Counted from the first letter of the stretch, positions 96-11,435 are shown. The stretch is 11,678 nt of DNA from an uncultured archaeon (GCA_964447495.1 CAYUTF010000041.1:1-11678), one strand, 5' to 3'. Numbers and translations are program-made. Notes: generated by a model from the letters alone, not told the origin.

Positions 96-1964
96 ATGAA
101 TCAATTATTTGGGGATATCAATTATGGTTTTTCTGGTAAACTCCTTAATATAAACCTTAATAAGCGGATATCTTCAAAAGAAAAGCTTAATAATAAGTAT
201 GCAAACCAATTTTTTGGCGGAGCTGGTTATGCTTGTAGATATTTATTCGACAATATAGAAAGAGAGACTGATCCTTTATCTGCTGAAAATATCTTATTCA
301 TTATGAATGGCCCGTTCACTTTAACTAATGCACCTTTATTTAGTAGATTTGTTATATGCGCTAAATCACCATACACAGGTTTATGGGGCGAGTCTAACTG
401 CGGAGGAACATTTGGTCCAGAATTAAAGAGAGCGGGTTATGATGGTATTATTATTAAGGGTCAATCAAAAGATCCAATAATCATCAGTATTAGAGATAAC
501 AATGTTGAATTTTTTGAAGCGGAAGATTTATGGGGAAAGGGGATCAATAAAACAAGGAATTTACTAAAAGATAATATAGAATTTAAAAATTCAAAAATCC
601 TTTGTATCGGACAAGCGGGAGAAAATCAAGTAAAATTCGCTAATATTAATGCAGAAGGAAGATCGGCAGGAAGAACTGGTATGGGTGCTGTGATGGGGTC
701 AAAAAATCTAAAAGCAGTATTAGTTCAAGGTACTTCATTCAAACCTATTGTTGCTAATCCAAATAAATTTAAATCTTCAGTCAAGCATCTAATCAAATAT
801 TTAATAAATTCAGATTCCACCAAAGTTTTAAGGCATTATGGAACAAGTGCAGGAGTTTTAGGAGCTTATACAATAGGAGATCTTCCAATTAAATATTGGT
901 CAAAGGGGCGATGGAATAAAATTGATGATATTTCAGGAGAAAAACTAAGAGAGAATTTTTTAGTAAAAAATAACCCTTGTTTTGGTTGTGTGATAGGTTG
1001 TGGTAGAATTATAAAAATTAACAATCAATACCATAAAATCCTTGAATGTGAGGGTCCAGAATATGAAACAATCGCAGGATTTGGTTCAATGATACTAAAC
1101 AATGATCTTGAATCAATTGCAATTGCGAATGATATGTGTAATGATTATGGTCTTGACACGATTAGTACTAGTGGAGTCATAGCTTTCATTTATGACTTAT
1201 TCAATAAGGCATTGATAAATATTGGTGAGGTTGATGATCTTAGACTTGATTGGGGGAATAGTGATTCAATGCTAAAATTAATTACAAAAATCGCTAAGAA
1301 AGAAGGAATAGGGAAAATACTAGCTGAAGGCTCAAATAAAGTGGGAAAAAAATTCAATATTTCAAGAGATGATATTGCTACAATCAATAATTTAGAAGTT
1401 CCATATCATGATATGCGATTTTGTTATGGTATGGCTTTAACTTATGGATTTAGCCCAAGAGGGCCTTGTCATACTACGGCTGATGGCTTTAAGGTACTAC
1501 GAAAAGACAATCAGATAGATTTTTCTAGTCTTGGCATAAAAAAAATAAAAATGAATTCAAATAATAAAATAATGGCAAAAAATATCGTGAAAATACAAGA
1601 TTATAGGTCAATTTATTCAAGTTTAATTAATTGTTATTTCTCTAATCCACCACCTTCTTACATATGTGATCTTATTACACATTTAACTGGTGCTAATTTT
1701 GACATGACTCTTTTACAAATTTTCGGTGAGAGAATTTTTAATATGAAGAGATTATTTAATTTAAAAATGGGGTTGACATCAGAAAATGATTTTGTTCCTA
1801 AGATTCTTTTGGAACCTTTAAATGAGGGCCCAATAAAAGCAATGAGTCCAAATTTTAAGAAATTAAGAAAATACTATTATGGATATAGAAATTGGAATCC
1901 AATAAATGGTAAACCTAATCAAAAATTACTAAAAAAGTTAAAACTCGAGGACCTAAAATTCTAA
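96..1964 (+). CDS. aor: Aldehyde:ferredoxin oxidoreductase family (W-bis-pterin, 4Fe-4S) enzyme
   Basis: 622 aa with AOR-family motifs: KSPYTG, ESNCGG..GPELKRAGYDGIII, GRTGMGAVMGSKNLKAV, CFGCVIGCGR (CxxCxxxC Fe-S ligands), EYET, DYGLDTIS, RGPCH, SLINCYF (likely 4th Cys) and GERIFNMKRLFN. The substrate subfamily cannot be assigned by eye. Confidence 0.93.
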   Translation: MNQLFGDINYGFSGKLLNINLNKRISSKEKLNNKYANQFFGGAGYACRYLFDNIERETDPLSAENILFIMNGPFTLTNAPLFSRFVICAKSPYTGLWGESNCGGTFGPELKRAGYDGIIIKGQSKDPIIISIRDNNVEFFEAEDLWGKGINKTRNLLKDNIEFKNSKILCIGQAGENQVKFANINAEGRSAGRTGMGAVMGSKNLKAVLVQGTSFKPIVANPNKFKSSVKHLIKYLINSDSTKVLRHYGTSAGVLGAYTIGDLPIKYWSKGRWNKIDDISGEKLRENFLVKNNPCFGCVIGCGRIIKINNQYHKILECEGPEYETIAGFGSMILNNDLESIAIANDMCNDYGLDTISTSGVIAFIYDLFNKALINIGEVDDLRLDWGNSDSMLKLITKIAKKEGIGKILAEGSNKVGKKFNISRDDIATINNLEVPYHDMRFCYGMALTYGFSPRGPCHTTADGFKVLRKDNQIDFSSLGIKKIKMNSNNKIMAKNIVKIQDYRSIYSSLINCYFSNPPPSYICDLITHLTGANFDMTLLQIFGERIFNMKRLFNLKMGLTSENDFVPKILLEPLNEGPIKAMSPNFKKLRKYYYGYRNWNPINGKPNQKLLKKLKLEDLKF

Positions 1965-2041
1965 GAATAAAATATATATAATTTTAATTCCCTTTTTTCA
2001 ATATCTAAACTAATCTAGAGTACCTTTAAAACGTGATAATA

Positions 2042-2746
2042 ATGATGGAACGAAATGAGGAACATATTGTTGGAGGCGGAAAAATTCGAAGTATAATACT
2101 TGGACTTAATGATGGCTTAATATCAACTTTCACATTATTAGTGGGAGTTGCTGCGGCATCTTTTGCTGGGGGCGTAGGTACTAATATTATTATTTTGACA
2201 GGCATAGCTGCTATGGTATCAGGTGCGGTAAGTATGGGACTTGGAGAATATATCTCATCAAAATCAGAATATAAATATATTAAAAATGAAATTAAAAAAG
2301 AGAAAGCGGAAATTGAATTATTTCCAGAAGAAGAGAAACAAGAAGTAAAAAATTATTTTGAAAAGATGGGATTAGAGGGTAATACATTAGATGCCTGTGT
2401 GGACTCTATTACAAATAAAAAGGAGACTTGGCTTAATTTTTTAGTAAAAAGCGAACTGGGATTGGATGAACCCGAATCACCCTTAATAGGGGCTTTATTA
2501 ACATTTATAGCCTTTGTTATTGGTTCTCTAATCCCTCAAATTCCATACTTTTTAAGTATAGGATTTATTTCTTTGGTATTTTCATCAGTTGTATCGTTTA
2601 GTTCGCTCTTTATAGTAGGAGCTTTAAAAACCAAAATCACGGGTGAGAGGAAGATTAAGGGGGCTCTTGAAATGTTAATTATTGGTATTATTGCTTTTTG
2701 TATTTCTTACCTAATTGGATTGTCATTAGAACAGTTGATTTCGTAA
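2042..2746 (+). CDS. VIT1/CCC1 family Fe2+/Mn2+ transporter
   Basis: Motifs IILGLNDGL, GAVSMGLGEYISSKSE, a Glu-rich cytoplasmic metal-binding segment (EIKKEKAEIELFPEEEKQE...ELGL) and three C-terminal TM helices. The ORF track starts at GTG 2033, but GTGAT there looks like an RBS for ATG 2042 or 2045, so the start is uncertain. Confidence 0.92.
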   Translation: MMERNEEHIVGGGKIRSIILGLNDGLISTFTLLVGVAAASFAGGVGTNIIILTGIAAMVSGAVSMGLGEYISSKSEYKYIKNEIKKEKAEIELFPEEEKQEVKNYFEKMGLEGNTLDACVDSITNKKETWLNFLVKSELGLDEPESPLIGALLTFIAFVIGSLIPQIPYFLSIGFISLVFSSVVSFSSLFIVGALKTKITGERKIKGALEMLIIGIIAFCISYLIGLSLEQLIS

Positions 2747-2753
2747 AAAAAAA
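2745..2753 (-). terminator. Oligo-T terminator candidate after rubrerythrin
   Basis: T9 run on the minus strand 34 nt after the rbr stop, overlapping the stop codon of the convergent VIT1 gene. Confidence 0.45.
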
Positions 2754-2787
2754 GTATCCTTTTATACCTTAATAAAATCGTATCTAC

Positions 2788-3360
2788 TTATAACTTGATT
2801 TCATCAAAAAATTGTTGATCATGTCCACAATTAGGACAAATTAAAGGAAGCTGACTTAATTCAACATTTCCACAGATTTTACAAAGATAAACACCAATAT
2901 CACTTACATCTCTTCCACTTTCAAGAAGTTTTAAATATTTTGTAAACAGCGTACAATGTACTTTTTCTGCTTTTCTTGCTAAATTAAAACTAAATTCAGC
3001 AAGGTAAATGTCTTCTTGTCTAGCATTTTTAATATATCCCTTATACATTTTTTTAAATTCATAAGTTTCCCCGGAAATAGCTTGAATTAAATTATTTCTA
3101 GTAGTATTGACACTATTTAATAATTCAGAATCATTAGAGCTAACAATATCATCAATTTTGAATGATTCATTTGTAATTTTTTCTAAAGCTTGAAGGTGGT
3201 TTTTAATGTGAACTGCTTCAGCTAAAGATACAGCTTTAAATAATTTTGCAATCATAAAATGGTTTTCTTTAAGAGCTAACTTTGAAAATAACTCATATTT
3301 ACATTTTGCTGTGTTTTCACCAATAATTGCTTCTTTTAGGTTTTCAATTACACTATTAAT
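2788..3360 (-). CDS. rbr: Rubrerythrin (diiron four-helix bundle plus C-terminal rubredoxin-like domain), about 190 aa
   Basis: The frame stays open upstream of ATG 3255 to a TAG at 3361-3363 and encodes INSVIENLKEAIIGENTAKCKYELFSKLALKENHF, the rubrerythrin helix 1. Ligand motifs are GE(N), EAVH, GETYE..MY, EKVH and CKIC-x11-CPNC. The start is inferred at ATT 3358-3360; the ORF track start of 3255 would truncate the protein. Confidence 0.9.
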   Translation of the reverse strand: MNSVIENLKEAIIGENTAKCKYELFSKLALKENHFMIAKLFKAVSLAEAVHIKNHLQALEKITNESFKIDDIVSSNDSELLNSVNTTRNNLIQAISGETYEFKKMYKGYIKNARQEDIYLAEFSFNLARKAEKVHCTLFTKYLKLLESGRDVSDIGVYLCKICGNVELSQLPLICPNCGHDQQFFDEIKL

Positions 3361-3537: not shown

Positions 3538-6500
3538 TTATTCTTCTTTATTTGTAAATCGAATAAAATTATTTTTCGGTTCGTAAAGTGTACCTTCTTT
3601 GACAAGTTCTTCTAAGGCATCTTTAATCCATTTCTCATCTAATTCTTCTTCTAATTCAAGAATTTCTATGACATTTCTCTTTTCTAATGCTTTCCAATTA
3701 TTTTCTTCGAAAATTTCTTTTAATCTATTCAACAATTTATCAAGTTTACTAATAGAACTTCTTGATTGGCCTACTAAAATTCTATCCATATCGATTTTTC
3801 CTGTTGTTTCATCGTACCCCGTATCTTTTAGGTACCTTTTAAATAATTTTATTATTTCATCTACATCCTCTCTCAGTACTTTATTTCTCAGTGCCATCTT
3901 TGCATAAGCTTCACTTAATCTAACGAGAGCATCTAAATTTCTAGCTAAGATGGATACAATTGCATCCTCACTATCATAATCCCCTCTTAAATTTAAGTAA
4001 TAATCTTTGATTCTATCCTTTGCTTCATCAGTCAATAACGGATCACAGGTTCTCCGAGCATGTTTAATATATTTTTTTAGCAAAGCGCTATTAATTGGTG
4101 CCGAAATATCTGTTTTGTCATTATTTTGAGAGTCTTTTCCTAACATTGAATTTTGCAGTATAAATTCTGCCATTTGAGCATCATTTGTTGGATCAGGTTT
4201 ATCAATAACAACAAAGATCAGATCAAATCTAGATAAAAGCGAAGGGGGTAGATGTATATTTTGTGTTGGAGTTTTATATCTATCATATCTCCCAGAACGG
4301 GGGTTTGCTGCCGCAATAATTGCTGTTTGAGCTTTTAAAGTAGCCACTATTCCTGCTTTTGCAATACTTACGGTGTTATGAAGAATTACTCCTTGACTAA
4401 TAAAAGTATGATTTGGTTCTACGGTTATATCATAAACCCAAGGTGTATATTTACTATCTACGTTATTTATTAGTTCAATTTTCTTTATTCTGTCCCAATT
4501 TATTTCAGAATTTAATAAAGAATGTAATTTATCGATTTTATATTTAATTTCTTCGCAATGATTCTTTAATGATTTGATAATCTTCTTTCGAATAATTTCT
4601 CTTCTTTTTGAATTATATCCATTTCTTTCATAATAATCTATATTACCTCGTGTTAAACTACATATTTGAGCAATGTCATATTGAGAAAATCCAGTTATAT
4701 TTCTAAATTTCTTAATATTCTGAAATTCTTTAATTGCATCAATAATTCTACGAAATTTTCCTTTAATTAGATTTAAATCATTAGTAAATACATTTCTAGT
4801 AATACCATGATTTTTCTTTAAGTGTCTGTAATAATAACCATTATGTACTATTGCTAAATCATGTTTAAGTTTTATAATAGATTCTATTACAGAATTTGGG
4901 AAAATATCATGATGATATATTTTTATTTTATTAGGTTTAATTAAGTTTTTTACTTTTTCATAACGTTTGTCATTTATTTTGATTATTTCATTAAACAATT
5001 TAATTAAAGAATGTCCACGGATGTATACTTTGAATGAATCATTATATTTATCATAAACAATCCGGGAATGAATTCCTAACTTCAATAATAAATCTTGATA
5101 ATCCTCACTTAAACCTTTAGAAGCAGTTCGATAACACATTGCCGTTGACTCAACACTTCCATCACCTTTAAAAGCGCTAATTAAGAATGCTCTTGCAATT
5201 TCAACACTAGCTGCTAAAATTTTAGAAGGGATTCTCTTCTCTTTTGAGATTCTCATTACTTCTGAAAAATTTTCCAGCATCCAATGATATAAATTTATTG
5301 AGATATATCTTAGAGTAAATAAGCCATCTTCTCGGATGTTTATACTTGGTTCAAGATTGAAAGAATCTCTCATCAAATTACGAAATTCTCTAATTATAGT
5401 ATTATCCATGTTAGAAAAACCTATTTCTGCTCCAGAACCATTATAACTATGTCCTTCCGTAACTATATAACCTAGAATTCTTGCTATATTGGTATCTAAC
5501 TGTTTTGGGGTATGTATTTCCTTAGCAAGTGAGTGACTTGAGTATTCAAACTCGCAAAGTGGGATTGTTTGACAAGAATTAGGTATATAATTTGGTATTG
5601 GGATAAAATCATCCTCAGTACAATCGCATGCTTTAATACAGAATAATTGACCATCACGATAAACATATACTGGGTGTTCTGGTGTAATTCTAACGCGTCG
5701 TCCATTTGTAAATGTAAGTTCATAAAATATATCGGGAGCTTTATGACGACTAACTCGATTTACTTTAGTCTTAAATATTCTATTAAAATCAGTGGTGTAA
5801 AGACTTAGACTATCATATTGCAAAATTTGACAGTCTATACCATTAATAACACGCTCTTTATGTTTTTCCATTAAATTATCAATGAAATCTCCTATAATAA
5901 CTCTTTTTCCTTCTGTAGTAAGAATTTCAGTATTATAGTGGTAAGATTGTTGTTCCATCGCTTCATGAAGAGCAGATCTATCTTGGGGATCCATTTTGTC
6001 AAACTCATCAATCGCGGCAATACCACCATTGGCTAGCACAACAGCTCCCGCTTCAAGATTCATTTGACCTGTGTCTGAATCTTTGATTACTGCTGCTGTT
6101 AAACCCACCGCTGTAGAACCCTTTCCAGATGTATATATCCCCCGTGGGGATATATCTATGGCACTTTTTAATATTTCTGATTTCCCAGTTCCGGGGTCTC
6201 CCACAAATAATACATGAATATCACCTCTTTTAATACCCCCATCGGGTTTTCTCTTCCTTGTTCCAGCAAATAAACTTAAAGCACAAGCCATTTTCAAATC
6301 TTCTTGACCATAAATTGTAGGAGCAATCGATCTTGCAATTTTTTTTTGAACCATTGGTTCTTTTGATAATTTTTCAATTTCTTTTTTATCTTCTTTAGAT
6401 AAATCTGTTAAATCATCAGTTTTATCTTCAGGATCAATTAAATTTACATCTATATAAGTTTTAAACAGGGTACTATTGATGCTTTTTGTCGATTGAGCCA

Positions 6501-7236
6501 ATACAGATTTATATGTTCCTACAACTTTAACCCTATCTCCAGGTTTTACCGTATCTACCAAATCATGTTTTAAAATTGATTGTATAGATCTAGGAATTCT
6601 ACCAGCAGGTAAATCTTCTGGAATTTCTTGAATAGTCACACTTTGCCAATCTATAAATGTTGAATTTTTCGATATTAAACGAAAATCTGATTGTGCTTTT
6701 GCTTTGCAACTTTTTTTAATGCAAAATTTAGGCCACTTAATTCTTGAAGTAAGCTGAGTTACATTAAATTGAGTTTTACAAACCAAACACTCAAAAGTTG
6801 CATCAATTAATTTAGGTCTTATAGTAGAAATTCTGATTAAAATTCCTTTATAAGCTACCAGAGTATCTATATGTTTTGCTCTTAATCCTCTTAATGGAAT
6901 AGTTAATGGGCTTTTTTCATCTTTTGTGGAGATCCTAACAAAAAAATCTTGATCGATGGCTTTAGATCCTTGAAATTTTAAAGTGTTCTTGAACGCGTTA
7001 ATTGCTTCTTCAATTAAGGTTTCAGGATCTCTTCTCAACATCTCAGCTAATTGTGAATCAAATGCAAGAAGATCCTCGTAAAAAATTACTAAAGTATTGC
7101 TACTTTTAGAAATGATATCATTAATTTGCTCTTGATATTTATAAACCCCCGGTTTATCTTCAAATAGGCGATAAAAATCTTCAAATCTTTGAGTTTTATG
7201 AATCGGTACACTAGAACTAGAAGCAGGAGTTGCCAA
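3538..7236 (-). CDS. mcm: Replicative helicase MCM, intein-containing precursor (1232 aa; 708 aa after splicing)
   Basis: Zn finger CLVC-x18-CIKKSC, DWQSVTIQEIPEDLPAGRIPRS, Walker A GDPGTGKS (6178-6201), Walker B IDEFDKM, LHEAMEQQ|TVSIAKAG, AAANP, Arg finger SRFD, a sensor-2-like ARNLDALVRLSEA and a C-terminal winged helix. TTG start is forced by an in-frame TGA at 7243-7245 and preceded by AGGTGA. Confidence 0.97.
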   Translation of the reverse strand: MATPASSSSVPIHKTQRFEDFYRLFEDKPGVYKYQEQINDIISKSSNTLVIFYEDLLAFDSQLAEMLRRDPETLIEEAINAFKNTLKFQGSKAIDQDFFVRISTKDEKSPLTIPLRGLRAKHIDTLVAYKGILIRISTIRPKLIDATFECLVCKTQFNVTQLTSRIKWPKFCIKKSCKAKAQSDFRLISKNSTFIDWQSVTIQEIPEDLPAGRIPRSIQSILKHDLVDTVKPGDRVKVVGTYKSVLAQSTKSINSTLFKTYIDVNLIDPEDKTDDLTDLSKEDKKEIEKLSKEPMVQKKIARSIAPTIYGQEDLKMACALSLFAGTRKRKPDGGIKRGDIHVLFVGDPGTGKSEILKSAIDISPRGIYTSGKGSTAVGLTAAVIKDSDTGQMNLEAGAVVLANGGIAAIDEFDKMDPQDRSALHEAMEQQSYHYNTEILTTEGKRVIIGDFIDNLMEKHKERVINGIDCQILQYDSLSLYTTDFNRIFKTKVNRVSRHKAPDIFYELTFTNGRRVRITPEHPVYVYRDGQLFCIKACDCTEDDFIPIPNYIPNSCQTIPLCEFEYSSHSLAKEIHTPKQLDTNIARILGYIVTEGHSYNGSGAEIGFSNMDNTIIREFRNLMRDSFNLEPSINIREDGLFTLRYISINLYHWMLENFSEVMRISKEKRIPSKILAASVEIARAFLISAFKGDGSVESTAMCYRTASKGLSEDYQDLLLKLGIHSRIVYDKYNDSFKVYIRGHSLIKLFNEIIKINDKRYEKVKNLIKPNKIKIYHHDIFPNSVIESIIKLKHDLAIVHNGYYYRHLKKNHGITRNVFTNDLNLIKGKFRRIIDAIKEFQNIKKFRNITGFSQYDIAQICSLTRGNIDYYERNGYNSKRREIIRKKIIKSLKNHCEEIKYKIDKLHSLLNSEINWDRIKKIELINNVDSKYTPWVYDITVEPNHTFISQGVILHNTVSIAKAGIVATLKAQTAIIAAANPRSGRYDRYKTPTQNIHLPPSLLSRFDLIFVVIDKPDPTNDAQMAEFILQNSMLGKDSQNNDKTDISAPINSALLKKYIKHARRTCDPLLTDEAKDRIKDYYLNLRGDYDSEDAIVSILARNLDALVRLSEAYAKMALRNKVLREDVDEIIKLFKRYLKDTGYDETTGKIDMDRILVGQSRSSISKLDKLLNRLKEIFEENNWKALEKRNVIEILELEEELDEKWIKDALEELVKEGTLYEPKNNFIRFTNKEE
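4375..5946 (-). mobile_element. Intein (524 aa, precursor residues 431-954) with LAGLIDADG homing endonuclease
   Basis: It interrupts the conserved EAMEQQ|TVSIAKAG. Block A SYHYNTEILTTEG, block B ITPEHPVY, endonuclease blocks LGYIVTEGH (5449-5475) and LISAFKGDG (5158-5184), block H SKGLSEDYQDLLLKLGI, block F VYDITVEPNHTF, block G VILHN followed by Thr+1. Confidence 0.96.
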
Positions 7237-7242
7237 ATAGTT

Positions 7243-7248
7243 TCACCT
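7243..7248 (-). promoter_or_regulatory. Shine-Dalgarno site of mcm (AGGTGA)
   Basis: Minus strand reads AAAGGTGAAACTAT-TTG: an archaeal-type SD 6 nt before the TTG start. Confidence 0.8.
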
Positions 7249-7290
7249 TTTAAATTAAAGTTATATACCACAATTATTTTTTATGATTTT

Positions 7291-7315
7291 TTAATTCGTT
7301 ATATTAACGATTTAA
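7291..7315. promoter_or_regulatory. Imperfect palindrome overlapping the candidate mcm TATA box
   Basis: TTAAtTCGTTA-tat-TAACGAtTTAA has 10 of 11 arm positions complementary. The minus strand contains TTAATATA at 7307-7300. Confidence 0.5.
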
Positions 7316-7414
7316 GCTTATTAAACTGTAAATAATATTTATTGGAAAAAAATAATAAGACTGGTTAAATTTAGTAATATTTATTTTTGGTTTTTAGCAA
7401 AGTGAGTTATAAAT

Positions 7415-10400
7415 TCAACTTTCTTTCAATTTTGTTAATGTCTCACAGATGATTGGGTCTTGTGACATCTCACATCTTACTTTTAATAGGGAGATTACTC
7501 TTTTTTTAATTTCTTCATCTTCATATTTTACTGTTCTCCCAAAAATTAGAGCAATTGATTGCTGAGTTTCTATTGATGTCTCATCACTAAGATTTTTTAA
7601 CAATTTTGAAAGAATTTTAGTAAGTCCTATTTTCTTAATGATTTTTACCATGACATTTACGGTAGATCTTCTTACTTCTTCAGAAATATCTCCAAGAAGT
7701 TTAATAATATAATCAAATAACTTAATTATATCGTCAAAACCATAGATTTCTAATAAACTAGCTGATCGTTCTCTCACTATAGGATCCTTGTTCGTGATAT
7801 TATTTAATAATTTTTCAATAGGGATTTCTGAAGATTTTAGGTCTTTTAATGAAGACAAAAGATTCATAGATGAACGCCGAACCCAACTGTTTTTATCATC
7901 AAGTAAGTTAACAAGTTTTTTTATAATTTGTTGTTTATTATCAATCAAATTTATAATCTTTCCGATACTTAATATGCTTGCTTCTCTTACATTCCATTCT
8001 TCGTCATTTAATGTTTTATTGATTAAAACACTACATACATCAGAAGGAGATTTATAACCAATATATCCCATTATTTTAACCGTCGTTTCTCTAATAAATG
8101 GATCATTATCAGAAAGCATTTCTAAAAAAGGATTTAATGGAATTACATCAGGGGTTTTCTCAGTTATGATCATTATAATTTTTATCAAAGTAATTTTGAG
8201 AAATGACTCTTGTTTACCCATGATATCTATAAGGTTATCAATTACTGCTATGAATGAATTTGGAGATATCTTAGCAATTTTAGACAATAACTGTAATATA
8301 TATTTCTTTACTTCATTATTACTTTCATTTTGAAACGCATTTAAAAGCAAATTTATATTTATTTCAGTTTTAGTAATATCAATCATGCCATCAAGAGAAT
8401 TTAAACTATTTAACTTAATAGTAACGTTTTCAGCATTTAATGAATTAATTAATCGTGTATAAATCTCATCAGGATGTTTTTTAGCTATCTTTATAATGGT
8501 TTTAGAGATAATCCCTTTTGAGATAAATTTTGAATCATCTTGAATCATTATTAAATTTTCAAAAACTAAATTTGGAGATTCATCATATTTTTCAATTAAT
8601 AAGTTTGAGACTGTTTCTCTTACTTCTCTGTTCTCAAATTTAATGAAAGTTAAAAATATTGAGAGTATTTTTTCAGCATTTCTTTCCCACAATGCACCAA
8701 GTAAGGTTAATATACTCTCAGTGATTTCAGGATTGTTCTTGTCTATTTTGTTTATGATAATATCAAGATTTAAATCTTTTGGATTCTCATCAAAGTATTT
8801 CTTAAGAACTAAAATTGATGCATCTCTTACCGATTTATCTTTATCATTTAAAGCATCAATAAAAGGCATAGCATTTATGGAATACTTCTTAAAATTGTCT
8901 ATATTAGAAAATATATTAAAAATTGAAGCTCTTACTGAACTAGATGGATCTTTCATAAAAGGAATTAACTGTTGTATCAGATTAGAATCAATACTTTTTG
9001 TATTAATACTAGCCAGATTATTAATTGCTTGAGCTCTTATTTGCATATTTGGGTGATTAATTTTCTTGAATAAGATATCTTTTGGAAATTCATATGGAGT
9101 ATCATATAAAGTACTTAGGATTTCCACTTGAATTTGATTGTCCGGATCATCTATTAAATTAAGAATTTCATCTGGTTGGATCAATTCTTTCTTTAGAAGT
9201 TTTATTTTTAATAGATATTTTAGTCCAGTAAATTTAAATCTCCATTCTGAATCTTTAATTAAATTAAAAATTTTTTCTCTCGGAATTTTATTTAATATTT
9301 CGTTATTTAAGTTTAATAAAATCTTAGAGATCTGTAGACTTTTTACATAATTAGGAGATTCTAATGCTTCTAATAACCATGGTAAGATTAAATTGGGGGA
9401 ATCTTGAGATAATTTATTTAAAATATGAAAACACACTTTTCTCATAGTTTGATTTGGGTCTGATAATCCATCTAATAGTATATTTTTGTATTTCCAATTA
9501 TCAAGATTTATTTCAGAGCGAATAGCAATTCTTTCAAACATTAAAACTAGAGTTTTTTCAGCAAATTCACTTATTTTAGAATTCTTATTCTTAACAAAGT
9601 TAAAGAGGGGGATTGGATCAAAAGTTTGACCACATTGAGTTATTTTTGAAACTTTTAGATTTTGTATAAAATCACTTTTTCTTGATACAAAGAAATAGAT
9701 TGTAAAAATTAACATGGTTATTTCTTCAATAACAGCAGCCCAAGATAATATGCGATAGTTAGGAATAATTTGATTTGTGAACGTCCAAAAATTAAAAACT
9801 TCAACTAACTTATCTGAGTTTACAATTAAGAAGTTCACAAGGACATTAATCCCAATCGATGCCATTAAATAAGCTGAAAAGTAAATATCTATCCCTCTAT
9901 ATTTTATTTTTCTGCCCCAGAACCGAGTAAAATATCCAATGACTCCAAAGAACAGAGTGACAAAGACAAATACAGAAGTCATAGTGGATATAGCCAGAGA
10001 CCCAGTGAAAAATAATCCAATAGTCTGAAATAAAGAAATCCAAGCCCAAACAAATACAAATAACATCATACCGAAAATTATATATGGACTAGGATTAGAG
10101 AGAAACTGCTTAATTCCTCTCTTGCTATCTTCAAAATTTAGAAAAGAATAGCGTTTAATTTCGGGGATGTGATAATATACGTTGGAAATCCCCGCAATAT
10201 ATCCTTTTGATCCAAAGAATGTTAAAATCGTAATTGGATAAACAAGGATCCATGAAATCCATATTACCATAAAGGGAATGTTAAGAAAGGAAATTAAAAA
10301 AGGGGGGATTAAAAATATCAGGTAAAGTATAATTGCCATTAAAATTGAAACGAATTTGTTTTTAGAGATATTAATAATTTTTTTGCTTAGGAATTTATGA

Positions 10401-10771
10401 AATATAGTTAATCCTTCACTTTCTCTTCCTCTAATAGCAATAAAAAGGAAATCCACTAAAGGATAAAATGAGAGATAGAGCATACATATGATAAATGGGA
10501 GGAGTAAGGCTATAGGATGGATTTCTGGAGGCTCTATAGATGGGTTTGTCCAAAATTCGGGGGTCTCAATCGTAAAAATAACTGCCATCGCTACAACTAC
10601 CATAATGGATAAACTAAAAATAATACCATATAAAATTGAGATAATTCTATCTTTGATGTTGAATTCTCCTTTTTTAACCAAACTAACTTGTTTATTTATT
10701 ATAAAAAACCCAAAAGCAGAGAAAATTATAAATAATACAAAAAGAATCAATTCGACTAACAATTGTTTCAC
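7415..10771 (-). CDS. Polytopic membrane protein (about 9 TM, residues 1-362) fused to a long HEAT-repeat alpha-solenoid; function unknown
   Basis: Nine hydrophobic stretches in the first ~362 aa, then about 20 repeats of roughly 36-40 aa with an LxDxxxxVR-type signature (MKDPSSSVRAS, LNDKDKSVRDAS, LSDNDPFIRETT, LNDEEWNVREAS, LDDKNSWVRRSS, ITNKDPIVRERS, LGDISEEVRRST). GTG start, with an in-frame TAA just upstream at 10778-10780. Confidence 0.88.
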   Translation of the reverse strand: MKQLLVELILFVLFIIFSAFGFFIINKQVSLVKKGEFNIKDRIISILYGIIFSLSIMVVVAMAVIFTIETPEFWTNPSIEPPEIHPIALLLPFIICMLYLSFYPLVDFLFIAIRGRESEGLTIFHKFLSKKIINISKNKFVSILMAIILYLIFLIPPFLISFLNIPFMVIWISWILVYPITILTFFGSKGYIAGISNVYYHIPEIKRYSFLNFEDSKRGIKQFLSNPSPYIIFGMMLFVFVWAWISLFQTIGLFFTGSLAISTMTSVFVFVTLFFGVIGYFTRFWGRKIKYRGIDIYFSAYLMASIGINVLVNFLIVNSDKLVEVFNFWTFTNQIIPNYRILSWAAVIEEITMLIFTIYFFVSRKSDFIQNLKVSKITQCGQTFDPIPLFNFVKNKNSKISEFAEKTLVLMFERIAIRSEINLDNWKYKNILLDGLSDPNQTMRKVCFHILNKLSQDSPNLILPWLLEALESPNYVKSLQISKILLNLNNEILNKIPREKIFNLIKDSEWRFKFTGLKYLLKIKLLKKELIQPDEILNLIDDPDNQIQVEILSTLYDTPYEFPKDILFKKINHPNMQIRAQAINNLASINTKSIDSNLIQQLIPFMKDPSSSVRASIFNIFSNIDNFKKYSINAMPFIDALNDKDKSVRDASILVLKKYFDENPKDLNLDIIINKIDKNNPEITESILTLLGALWERNAEKILSIFLTFIKFENREVRETVSNLLIEKYDESPNLVFENLIMIQDDSKFISKGIISKTIIKIAKKHPDEIYTRLINSLNAENVTIKLNSLNSLDGMIDITKTEININLLLNAFQNESNNEVKKYILQLLSKIAKISPNSFIAVIDNLIDIMGKQESFLKITLIKIIMIITEKTPDVIPLNPFLEMLSDNDPFIRETTVKIMGYIGYKSPSDVCSVLINKTLNDEEWNVREASILSIGKIINLIDNKQQIIKKLVNLLDDKNSWVRRSSMNLLSSLKDLKSSEIPIEKLLNNITNKDPIVRERSASLLEIYGFDDIIKLFDYIIKLLGDISEEVRRSTVNVMVKIIKKIGLTKILSKLLKNLSDETSIETQQSIALIFGRTVKYEDEEIKKRVISLLKVRCEMSQDPIICETLTKLKES

Positions 10772-10862
10772 AGAGAATTATTTTATGTTAAGTAATTAAT
10801 ATATTTTTATTTCGGTAATAATACATAGTTTTAGTATATAAATGTAATTTAATTTATTAAAT
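10772..10862. promoter_or_regulatory. Divergent promoter region, HEAT-membrane gene / gins23
   Basis: 91-bp gap. The minus strand has AAAAA-TATATTAA (10803-10796, -32 to -25 from GTG). The plus strand has TATATAAA (10835-10842, -28 to -21 from ATG). Neither gene has an SD, consistent with leaderless transcripts. Confidence 0.5.
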
Positions 10863-11435
10863 ATGGTGAGTTTGAATTTGGAAAGACTAGAAGAAAATTT
10901 CAGAGACTATTTATTAAGATTAAATTTCATTTTTAAAAATCAAAATGTCATAACAGAATGTGTCAATGATTATCCAGGAGTGTCAGTATTGGGAGAAAAT
11001 GTTGGACCTTTTGAAAAGGGAAAGCAATATAAATTAAAATATTTTATAGCGGTACCTTTTATTAATAGTAATGTTTTAAAAGTATCAGGGGGCGAAAAAT
11101 GTGATAATGTTGATGTTCAACGGTATGCGATTAATGAACGTGATGATCAAACACTAATGCGAAGGGACAATAAATATTTTTTAAACAAGATTAAAGAGTT
11201 CAGAAAATTTATGGAAAGAGAAGTCGAGGAAAAGGTAAGACCTAAAGTTGAATTAGATCGCTATAATTCATATAATGCAAACATTGTGGATAGTAGATTA
11301 CTAAAATTATTAAGATTAGCAAAAGCAGAATTATCTTTAAATGATGAGGAAAAGTTAACTAATTCAGAGAAAAAATTATATAATCATATGTTCAGTATAA
11401 TTAAAGTTTGGAGAAGTTTTTTTTTAAATACCTAA
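10863..11435 (+). CDS. gins23: GINS complex subunit, Gins23 (Psf2/Psf3-like, B-A domain order)
   Basis: 190 aa. An N-terminal beta-rich B-domain-like segment (NDYPGVSVLGENVGPFEKGKQYKLKYFIA) is followed by a helical A-domain with RLLKLLRLA...LTNSEKKLY...WR, as in archaeal Gins23. Proximity to mcm supports the call. Confidence 0.78.
   Translation: MVSLNLERLEENFRDYLLRLNFIFKNQNVITECVNDYPGVSVLGENVGPFEKGKQYKLKYFIAVPFINSNVLKVSGGEKCDNVDVQRYAINERDDQTLMRRDNKYFLNKIKEFRKFMEREVEEKVRPKVELDRYNSYNANIVDSRLLKLLRLAKAELSLNDEEKLTNSEKKLYNHMFSIIKVWRSFFLNT

Follow-up and report, generated by a model that had tools for sequence, protein, structure and literature searches.

TM-HEAT, a membrane-anchored HEAT-repeat protein encoded head-to-head with gins23 across one order of Asgard archaea

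Why would a gene for a large membrane protein lie between mcm and gins23, two genes of the archaeal replication machinery? This question is raised by a stretch of 11,678 nucleotides (nt) from an uncultured archaeon (GCA_964447495.1 CAYUTF010000041.1:1-11678; "the window" below means this whole stretch), whose translation contains an open reading frame (ORF) of 1118 amino acids with a GTG start (7415..10771, minus strand). The product, here called TM-HEAT, consists of a membrane domain with nine transmembrane (TM) helices (residues 1-365; 9677..10771, minus strand), defined by translation, an alignment of 31 sequences and AlphaFold 2 (AF2), followed by a HEAT solenoid (residues 366-1118 plus the stop codon; 7415..9676, minus strand) recognized by Pfam, AF2 and Foldseek. 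An initial annotation of this DNA had proposed a membrane tether or scaffold for the replicative helicase, and its gene layout proved accurate: the ORF is present with an N-terminus that aligns with those of its relatives, and both the 178-bp gap to the co-directional mcm (7237..7414, minus strand) and the 91-bp divergent spacer to gins23 (10772..10862) are exact.

The answer towards which we lean, tentatively, is that TM-HEAT provides a membrane-anchored docking arm, co-regulated with gins23, which would act on replication or chromosome proteins. This reading is supported by the status of the gene as a core component of an entire order, by its pairing with gins23, and by a group of paralogues (group B) whose link to a DUF4332 gene adds a second DNA-related connection.

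The pairing of TM-HEAT with gins23

A database search with residues 1-400 returned 257 relatives, nearly all of them 1109-1124 amino acids long and 60-79% identical over that part. Where their sources were named, the labels were Promethearchaeota, Lokiarchaeota or other Asgard archaea, and most entries were described as "HEAT repeat domain-containing protein". Within the phylum, the membrane domain was detected in 143 of 400 genomes, every one of which belongs to the window's order, and in 0 of 246 genomes elsewhere. Its presence by family amounts to 123/134 genomes of the window's own family (f1) and to 1/1, 14/14 and 4/4 genomes of the order's other families (f2, f3 and f4, respectively). 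When only high-quality genomes are counted (90 in the phylum), all 39 members of the order carry TM-HEAT, with no match outside it. TM-HEAT is therefore a core, mostly single-copy gene of one Asgard order.

The gene in divergent orientation to TM-HEAT (10863..11435, plus strand) encodes a protein of 190 amino acids that the NCBIfam Gins23 model matches at 5e-10 with 39.5 bits, below its cut-off of 120. A profile built from 30 orthologues matches GINS structures in the PDB, including GINS 9moj_C (1.4e-9), Psf2 8ouw_B (4.4e-9), human Psf2 2q9q_A (3.4e-7) and T. kodakarensis 3anw_B (5.9e-6), which identifies the neighbour as Gins23.

Adjacency was counted from the genome coordinates of the membrane domain, the N-terminal part of MCM, and Gins23; four genomes with only one gene of the pair listed were left out, and 23 further membrane-domain matches fell outside the listing. 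Head-to-head adjacency of TM-HEAT and gins23 was found in 136 of the 139 genomes with both genes listed (120/122 in f1, 1/1 in f2, 13/13 in f3 and 2/3 in f4), with a gap of 100-335 nt (median 118) between the matched stretches, and the arrangement persists down to 26-35% identity of the membrane domain. Two of the three exceptions are genes at the start of a contig, and the third, in genome G280, is real, with no Gins23 in the locus. Counted between called ORFs, 28 of the 29 pair-bearing loci sampled have a spacer of 27-250 nt, and in the remaining one (L046) the ORFs overlap by 47 nt. In the window, the AT-rich spacer of 91 bp between the two start codons carries TATA-like runs near each end, facing each gene, and may serve as a shared promoter region.

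How specific this pairing is can be judged from a control, in which 393 ORFs from 31 inspected loci (~8 kb) formed 56 clusters. Gins23 was the only cluster consistently common to f1 and the other families: it occurred in 12 of 15 loci outside f1, and two more contained a divergent Gins23 (c36; NCBIfam Gins23 3e-5). Otherwise, f1 and non-f1 loci had MCM in common in a single case and a zinc-ribbon gene in a few.

The mcm side of the locus behaves differently. Although mcm lies 3' of TM-HEAT on the same strand in 102 of the 119 f1 genomes with both genes listed (median start-to-start distance 3519 nt), with the two genes on different contigs in the other 17, it does not follow TM-HEAT in f2 and f3, where the distance exceeds 1 Mb in three closed genomes and the two genes are again on different contigs in ten others. 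Among f4 genomes, mcm is 2 Mb away in one closed genome and 4 kb upstream in another. Of the order mcm/TM-HEAT/gins23 whose conservation the initial annotation had put in question, the gins23 side is hence kept, whereas the mcm side is confined to the window's family. Nor are the homologues dispersed among unrelated neighbourhoods, an outcome that had been named as damaging to the proposal, since they stay beside gins23 in the 136 genomes counted above. The gins23-TM-HEAT pairing has outlasted every other local linkage, including that between gins23 and mcm.

The membrane domain and the HEAT arm

The expected architecture, about nine TM helices followed by about 750 residues of HEAT repeats, was recovered by hydropathy, Pfam and AF2. 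Nine hydrophobic segments are evident from hydropathy and appear as long helices in AF2, which models the membrane domain alone with a predicted local confidence (pLDDT) of 83.9 and a predicted TM-score (pTM) of 0.81, using the alignment of 31 orthologues. In all 31 orthologues, lysine and arginine residues are unequally distributed between alternate loops, with 13-23 on the side of the HEAT arm and 0-6 on the opposite side. Because this distribution fits the positive-inside rule, the N-terminus should be outside and the HEAT arm cytoplasmic, so that the extracellular solenoid considered by the initial annotation finds no support in any of the 31 sequences.

Conservation is strongest at the two ends of the protein. 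The membrane domain is 60% identical within the window's family and 31% identical in other families, and the last HEAT repeats (residues 881-1118) reach 56% and 31%, respectively, compared with 40-44% and 22-23% for the middle of the arm; such peaks are as expected for two functional ends. In the 31-sequence alignment, G21, F52, P104, P179, G190 and N309 are invariant, the motifs YPL(I/V)(D/E)F, GSKGYIAG, GYFTRFWGRKIKYR, GINVLVNF and AAVIEE are retained in the membrane domain, and the cytoplasmic loops of this domain are also conserved. Two conserved polar residues, the invariant N309 and E349 (at least 90%), are located inside predicted TM helices.

No Pfam or NCBIfam family was detected in residues 1-400 of the window's protein, and none of the 31 orthologous membrane domains matched a common Pfam family, including MFS and TLC, at E ≤ 1. 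The "MFS transporter" and "PDS5" labels that a few relatives bear at their source are unsupported by these Pfam searches (0/31 for MFS). Structural searches with the membrane-domain model gave a best Foldseek match in the PDB with E 0.5 and TM-scores of at most 0.18; a VIA search gave SERINC3 (7rug_A) as its best match (Z 8.4, root-mean-square deviation (rmsd) 6.3, 213 aligned residues), short of what this tool describes as common among helical bundles, with its remaining rows confined to the two N-terminal helices or the initial HEAT repeats; and the ESM Atlas, searched with residues 1-380, returned no usable match. Such blanks exclude no family and fall short of proving that the fold is new. 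The nine helices thus form a conserved domain for which no relative was found in Pfam or NCBIfam and no clear one among solved folds. The match to a known transporter-HEAT fusion that the initial annotation had considered as a contrary explanation was accordingly not observed.

The same domain nevertheless invites the main alternative, itself quite plausible, in which TM-HEAT would perform a membrane task of its own, whether in transport, as a channel, in lipid handling as an enzyme or in sensing; the HEAT arm would regulate or scaffold this task, and the pairing with gins23 would be a historical accident locked in place by a back-to-back promoter region of ~100 nt. Conservation peaks in the membrane domain, both within the order and among the database relatives, and the intramembrane residues N309 and E349, together with the conserved cytoplasmic loops, go beyond what an anchor needs. 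The few source labels naming an MFS transporter would point in the same direction, but the 0/31 Pfam result does not support them, and no solved transporter fold was matched by either Foldseek or the VIA search, in which SERINC3 was the closest structure. Against an accidental pairing also stands the fate of the other neighbours, in that all other pairs, even gins23-mcm, were broken between families and only that of TM-HEAT with gins23 survived.

The HEAT arm, which in the preferred reading would be the docking part, is clearly recognized by Pfam, with HEAT_2 at 102.7 bits (cut-off 27.7), HEAT at 99.3 (23.5) and HEAT_EZ at 50 (27), and the DxxWxVR-type motifs reported earlier are legible in the translation. 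HEAT_2, HEAT, Cnd1, Adaptin_N and the other HEAT-type Pfam families all match beyond approximately residue 578. The full-length AF2 model (pLDDT 84.7, pTM 0.58; alignment of 31 orthologues) contains a continuous, all-helical solenoid from residue 367 to 1117, comprising ~40 helices or ~20 repeat pairs. As the initial annotation had stated, Pfam and NCBIfam reveal no catalytic domain. Foldseek returned at least 500 matches at E ≤ 0.001, and the matches listed are long HEAT proteins; among them, SF3B1 (1.7e-11), CAND1 and karyopherin-beta2 have TM-scores of 0.2-0.36 and rmsd values of 15-30 Å. The family profile matches PDB entries through the HEAT part only, including designed alphaRep proteins, PP2A-A (2.5e-19), INTS4 (3.3e-19) and the AP-1/AP-2 beta subunits (~1e-18).

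These similarities have to be weighed against a second alternative, which we regard as improbable: a coat-, adaptor- or tether-like scaffold that shapes membranes, an integral analogue of adaptin or coatomer trunks, which would organize membrane domains or cell protrusions and have no part in replication. In its favour, the Adaptin_N score (50.5 bits) exceeds the cut-off of 37, the family profile has AP-1/AP-2 beta trunks among its top natural matches in the PDB, and some neighbourhoods include small GTPase and roadblock genes. However, the Adaptin_N match is partial, its best stretch covering profile positions 88-311 of 524; its score is similar to what other generic HEAT families reach, and PP2A-A, INTS4, designed alphaRep, SF3B1, CAND1 and karyopherins are matched at least as well. 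In addition, the protein terminates in HEAT repeats, without an appendage (ear) domain in Pfam or AF2, and no coat-subunit genes were found among the 56 neighbour clusters.

Other specific affiliations were examined as well. Cnd1 reaches 56.6 bits over 142 of 162 positions; SCD reaches 29.2 bits with no single stretch passing alone; Cohesin_HEAT remains below its cut-off; and no SMC or kleisin gene was present in the neighbourhoods inspected. The importin-beta N-terminal domain (IBN_N) is absent among the 13 Pfam matches at E ≤ 0.01, which places the protein outside the karyopherin-beta family by this test. For the specific kinship to adaptin, karyopherin or condensin scaffolds suggested by the initial annotation, profile and Foldseek searches gave no support beyond a generic HEAT likeness.

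Paralogues, locus history and neighbouring genes

Group B paralogues have the same architecture as the TM-HEAT proteins described above (group A), with TM-plus-HEAT sequences of 1172-1215 amino acids in 16 genomes of f2, f3, f4 and one f1 genus (E ≤ 1e-50); their membrane domains are 26-29% identical to those of group A and are recovered by the A-group profile at E values of 1e-32 to 1e-47. Closed f3 genomes contain one or two extra TM-plus-HEAT genes, with products of 1172-1210 amino acids. Group B differs from group A in its patchy distribution and in its partner, which is not gins23: in 18 of 18 evaluable loci from the 16 genomes, the group B gene lies directly 3' of a gene on the same strand encoding 260 amino acids with two DUF4332 domains (pairs were matched by hand from two tables, and a nineteenth row, a fragment at a contig start, was left out). 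The DUF4332 and group B ORFs are separated by -1 to 1 nt, as in L067 (7065-11479), L068 (7524-11889), L069 (7055-11365) and L070 (7443-11759), where the paralogue has 1172-1209 amino acids. Weaker matches of the DUF4332 protein to TfoX_C, HHH_5 and Cdd1 suggest that it is probably DNA-binding, and this recurrent tie to a putative DNA-binding protein argues against a membrane function independent of DNA.

More distant relatives were also identified. A profile search of 332 genomes at least 80% complete yielded three weak matches among the 201 genomes outside the order, all of them TM-plus-HEAT proteins of ~1090-1100 amino acids in two other Asgard families (L082 7367-10639, minus strand; L083 8149-11448, plus strand; L084 3-2924, plus strand), with a YPFFQFLF-type motif comparable to YPLVDFLF in the window's protein. 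Giant relatives of 1488-2037 amino acids combine a partial membrane domain (profile positions ~240-400) with HEAT repeats (L071 4966-11079, minus strand; L072 7422-11981; L073 7068-11750; L074 7743-12209), and their occurrence in f3 indicates an expansion of membrane-HEAT proteins in this family. The genes amid which remote and larger relatives are found (aromatic amino-acid lyase, AMP-binding enzyme, ADH, SPFH and acyl-CoA dehydrogenase) would suit a membrane function of their own.

Genomes outside the order shed light on how the pairing of TM-HEAT with gins23 may have arisen. In three of the four sampled, gins23 immediately precedes mcm in the same orientation, in the fourth it is 3 kb away, and none has TM-HEAT. 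Given this gins23-mcm operon, TM-HEAT probably entered an old locus in the ancestor of the order, and in the simplest history it kept its place beside gins23 thereafter, including where mcm was relocated. In genome G123, from a sister family, a gene for 407 amino acids in divergent orientation to gins23 was considered as a soluble or separate precursor and rejected, its product being neither a membrane protein nor a member of a Pfam family.

The mcm gene of the window (3538..7236, minus strand; 1232 amino acids from a TTG start, Pfam and NCBIfam) is matched by every Pfam family expected of an MCM, with MCM at 296.9 bits, MCM_OB at 128.6, MCM_lid at 81.8 and MCM_N at 43.0. A single intein (residues 432-955; 4372-5943, minus strand), which carries an endonuclease domain of the LAGLIDADG type, interrupts the P-loop domain; it was identified by Intein_splicing and LAGLIDADG_3 in Pfam and by the NCBIfam intein N- and C-terminal regions. 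The extein junction reads QQ/S...HN/TVSIAKAG, so that the intein lies between EAMEQQ and TVSIAKAG. The mcm frame measures ~710 amino acids (no intein), ~1234 (one intein) or 1640-1850 (apparently two) in relatives, so that intein content varies within the order. Among 15 additional f1 loci, 14 have a gap of 137-390 nt between TM-HEAT and mcm. In the window, this spacer contains a run of seven T (7346-7352), TATATAA (7261-7267) and GGTGA (7243-7247), the last located six bases before the TTG start; the T-run is likely a terminator, and mcm likely has its own promoter.

A wider block is conserved in f1, in the order topoisomerase VI B, topoisomerase VI A, two small genes, gins23 (divergent), TM-HEAT and mcm, and judged by its gene content it reads as a DNA-topology/replication gene cluster. 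The f1 topoisomerase VI B proteins (L054 10439-15890, with equivalents in L055-L066) are 1024-1244 amino acids long and have extra C-terminal matches to HeH/LEM-like and Rho_N (SAP-like) domains. Between topoisomerase VI A and gins23, the block encodes a protein of 130-176 amino acids that belongs to no family, to which most loci add a phosphoribosyltransferase-like one. Genome G166 has two full blocks from topoisomerase VI A through gins23/TM-HEAT to mcm on different contigs (L059 and L060), one of them with three small ORFs before mcm, an arrangement that may reflect a genuine duplication or the binning of two strains into one genome. In f3, no replication genes flank the pair; its neighbours are molybdopterin oxidoreductase, TPR and radical-SAM genes.

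Six long ORFs are present in the window. The three beyond mcm encode an aldehyde:ferredoxin oxidoreductase (96-1964, plus strand), a VIT1-family iron transporter (2033-2746, plus strand) and a rubrerythrin (2788-3255, minus strand). Together (96-3255), they look like an iron/oxidative-stress group unrelated to TM-HEAT, and the same trio is also found 3' of mcm in several f1 relatives. A turn in GC skew at ~8.5-9 kb was considered as an origin signal and rejected, as the skew tracks gene strand.

A putative role at the membrane and comparison with known systems

In the reading that we tentatively prefer, the HEAT arm would serve as a docking platform for proteins at the inner face of the membrane, and TM-HEAT would be co-regulated with gins23 through back-to-back promoters. 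The arm would target replication or chromosome proteins, the simplest case being the binding of GINS, the CMG helicase or an associated factor, with the result that the replication machinery or replicating DNA might be held or sequestered at the membrane. The membrane domain may oligomerize, sense, or bind a lipid or ion, and its strong conservation indicates that it probably does more than anchor.

Two analyses addressed Gins23 as the possible binding partner. An order-specific insertion that might act as a docking site was not evident in an alignment of 16 Gins23 sequences, four of them from outside the order. A complex prediction of the HEAT arm (residues 365-1118, 31-row alignment) with Gins23 (30-row alignment) gave a score of 0.00 in a run without controls, a value that speaks neither for nor against binding.

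If the arm does bind Gins23, the outcome could also be inhibitory. As a negative regulator, it would sequester Gins23 or GINS at the membrane and gate CMG assembly, with the membrane domain sensing the state of the cell envelope or the nutrient supply. The gene-context evidence is the same as for a tether, the polar residues inside the helices of the conserved membrane domain could fit a sensing role, and divergent promoters suit a balanced expression of binder and target. Such a regulator has no known archaeal precedent, and sequence alone does not separate it from the tether model; we assign it a low probability.

Several observations weigh against a docking arm for replication or chromosome proteins. 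The link to replication is one of gene position, and a short shared promoter region by itself could keep two unrelated genes together. Genome G280 carries TM-HEAT without an adjoining gins23. The adjacency of mcm in one family, combined with the T-run and TATA-like box in the spacer, does not indicate co-transcription with mcm. The conservation of the membrane domain beyond the needs of a passive anchor hints at a function of its own, and DNA binding by the DUF4332 partner of group B would follow from weak HhH-family matches. The remote homologues have metabolic neighbours and no gins23 within ~8 kb, and the neighbours of the giant relatives are likewise unrelated (ADH-like, acyl-CoA dehydrogenase), with no gins23 nearby; the superfamily overall is therefore not tied to DNA.

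Taken further, the docking-arm reading leads to a more specific proposal, which we consider rather unlikely: TM-HEAT would tie the archaeal replisome to the membrane, its arm binding GINS (via Gins23) or a CMG-associated protein, so that forks or origins work at the membrane, and group B would, through the HhH protein encoded beside it, attach bulk DNA in the same way. If this were true, the family would represent a prokaryotic integral-membrane counterpart of the anchoring of chromatin and replication at the nuclear envelope, in the lineage closest to eukaryotes. The positioning of archaeal chromosomes and replisomes is an open question on which TM-HEAT bears. A study of Sulfolobus located replisome foci near the edge of the cell and suggested that they are attached to the membrane by a tether, which it did not identify (PMC3384333).

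TM-HEAT is amenable to direct testing, given that relatives are predicted from closed genomes of the order and that the HEAT arm is soluble by design. Even if the link to replication should fail, the family enlarges the expansion of solenoid scaffolds in Asgard archaea, and the nine-helix fold without a known relative stands. A literature search by title or abstract found no publication on the TM-HEAT family or its link to gins23. To our knowledge, no characterized system joins such an integral membrane domain to a HEAT scaffold tied to CMG genes, and TM-HEAT is for this reason rated as new in kind, with a putative function.

Known systems resemble individual parts of this protein. Bacteria possess transporter-HEAT fusions, namely the nucleotide transporter fusion TLC/NTT-HEAT and MFS-HEAT, in which, as in TM-HEAT, a polytopic membrane domain is followed by cytoplasmic HEAT repeats; the membrane domain of TM-HEAT, however, has nine helices rather than twelve, lacks an MFS or TLC profile match (0/31), and shows no clear match to a transporter fold. 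Adaptin and coatomer trunks (AP-1/AP-2 beta) share with TM-HEAT a HEAT trunk at the cytoplasmic face of a membrane, but adaptins are peripheral proteins that act in heterotetramers and carry an appendage, whereas TM-HEAT is integral, has no appendage, matches the trunk partially, and lacks nearby partner genes. The closest parallels to the arm itself are PP2A-A, karyopherin-beta/transportin, CAND1, SF3B1 and INTS4, which likewise consist of ~15-20 HEAT repeats without a catalytic domain. PP2A-A and INTS4 are the best natural profile matches of TM-HEAT, and SF3B1, CAND1 and karyopherin-beta2 are its best fold matches; the comparison with transportin (TM-score 0.19-0.36, rmsd 24-30 Å) is generic and carries no specific orthology. 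All of these eukaryotic scaffolds are soluble, whereas the arm of TM-HEAT is fused to a nine-helix membrane domain, and by analogy with them it probably works as a protein-docking surface.

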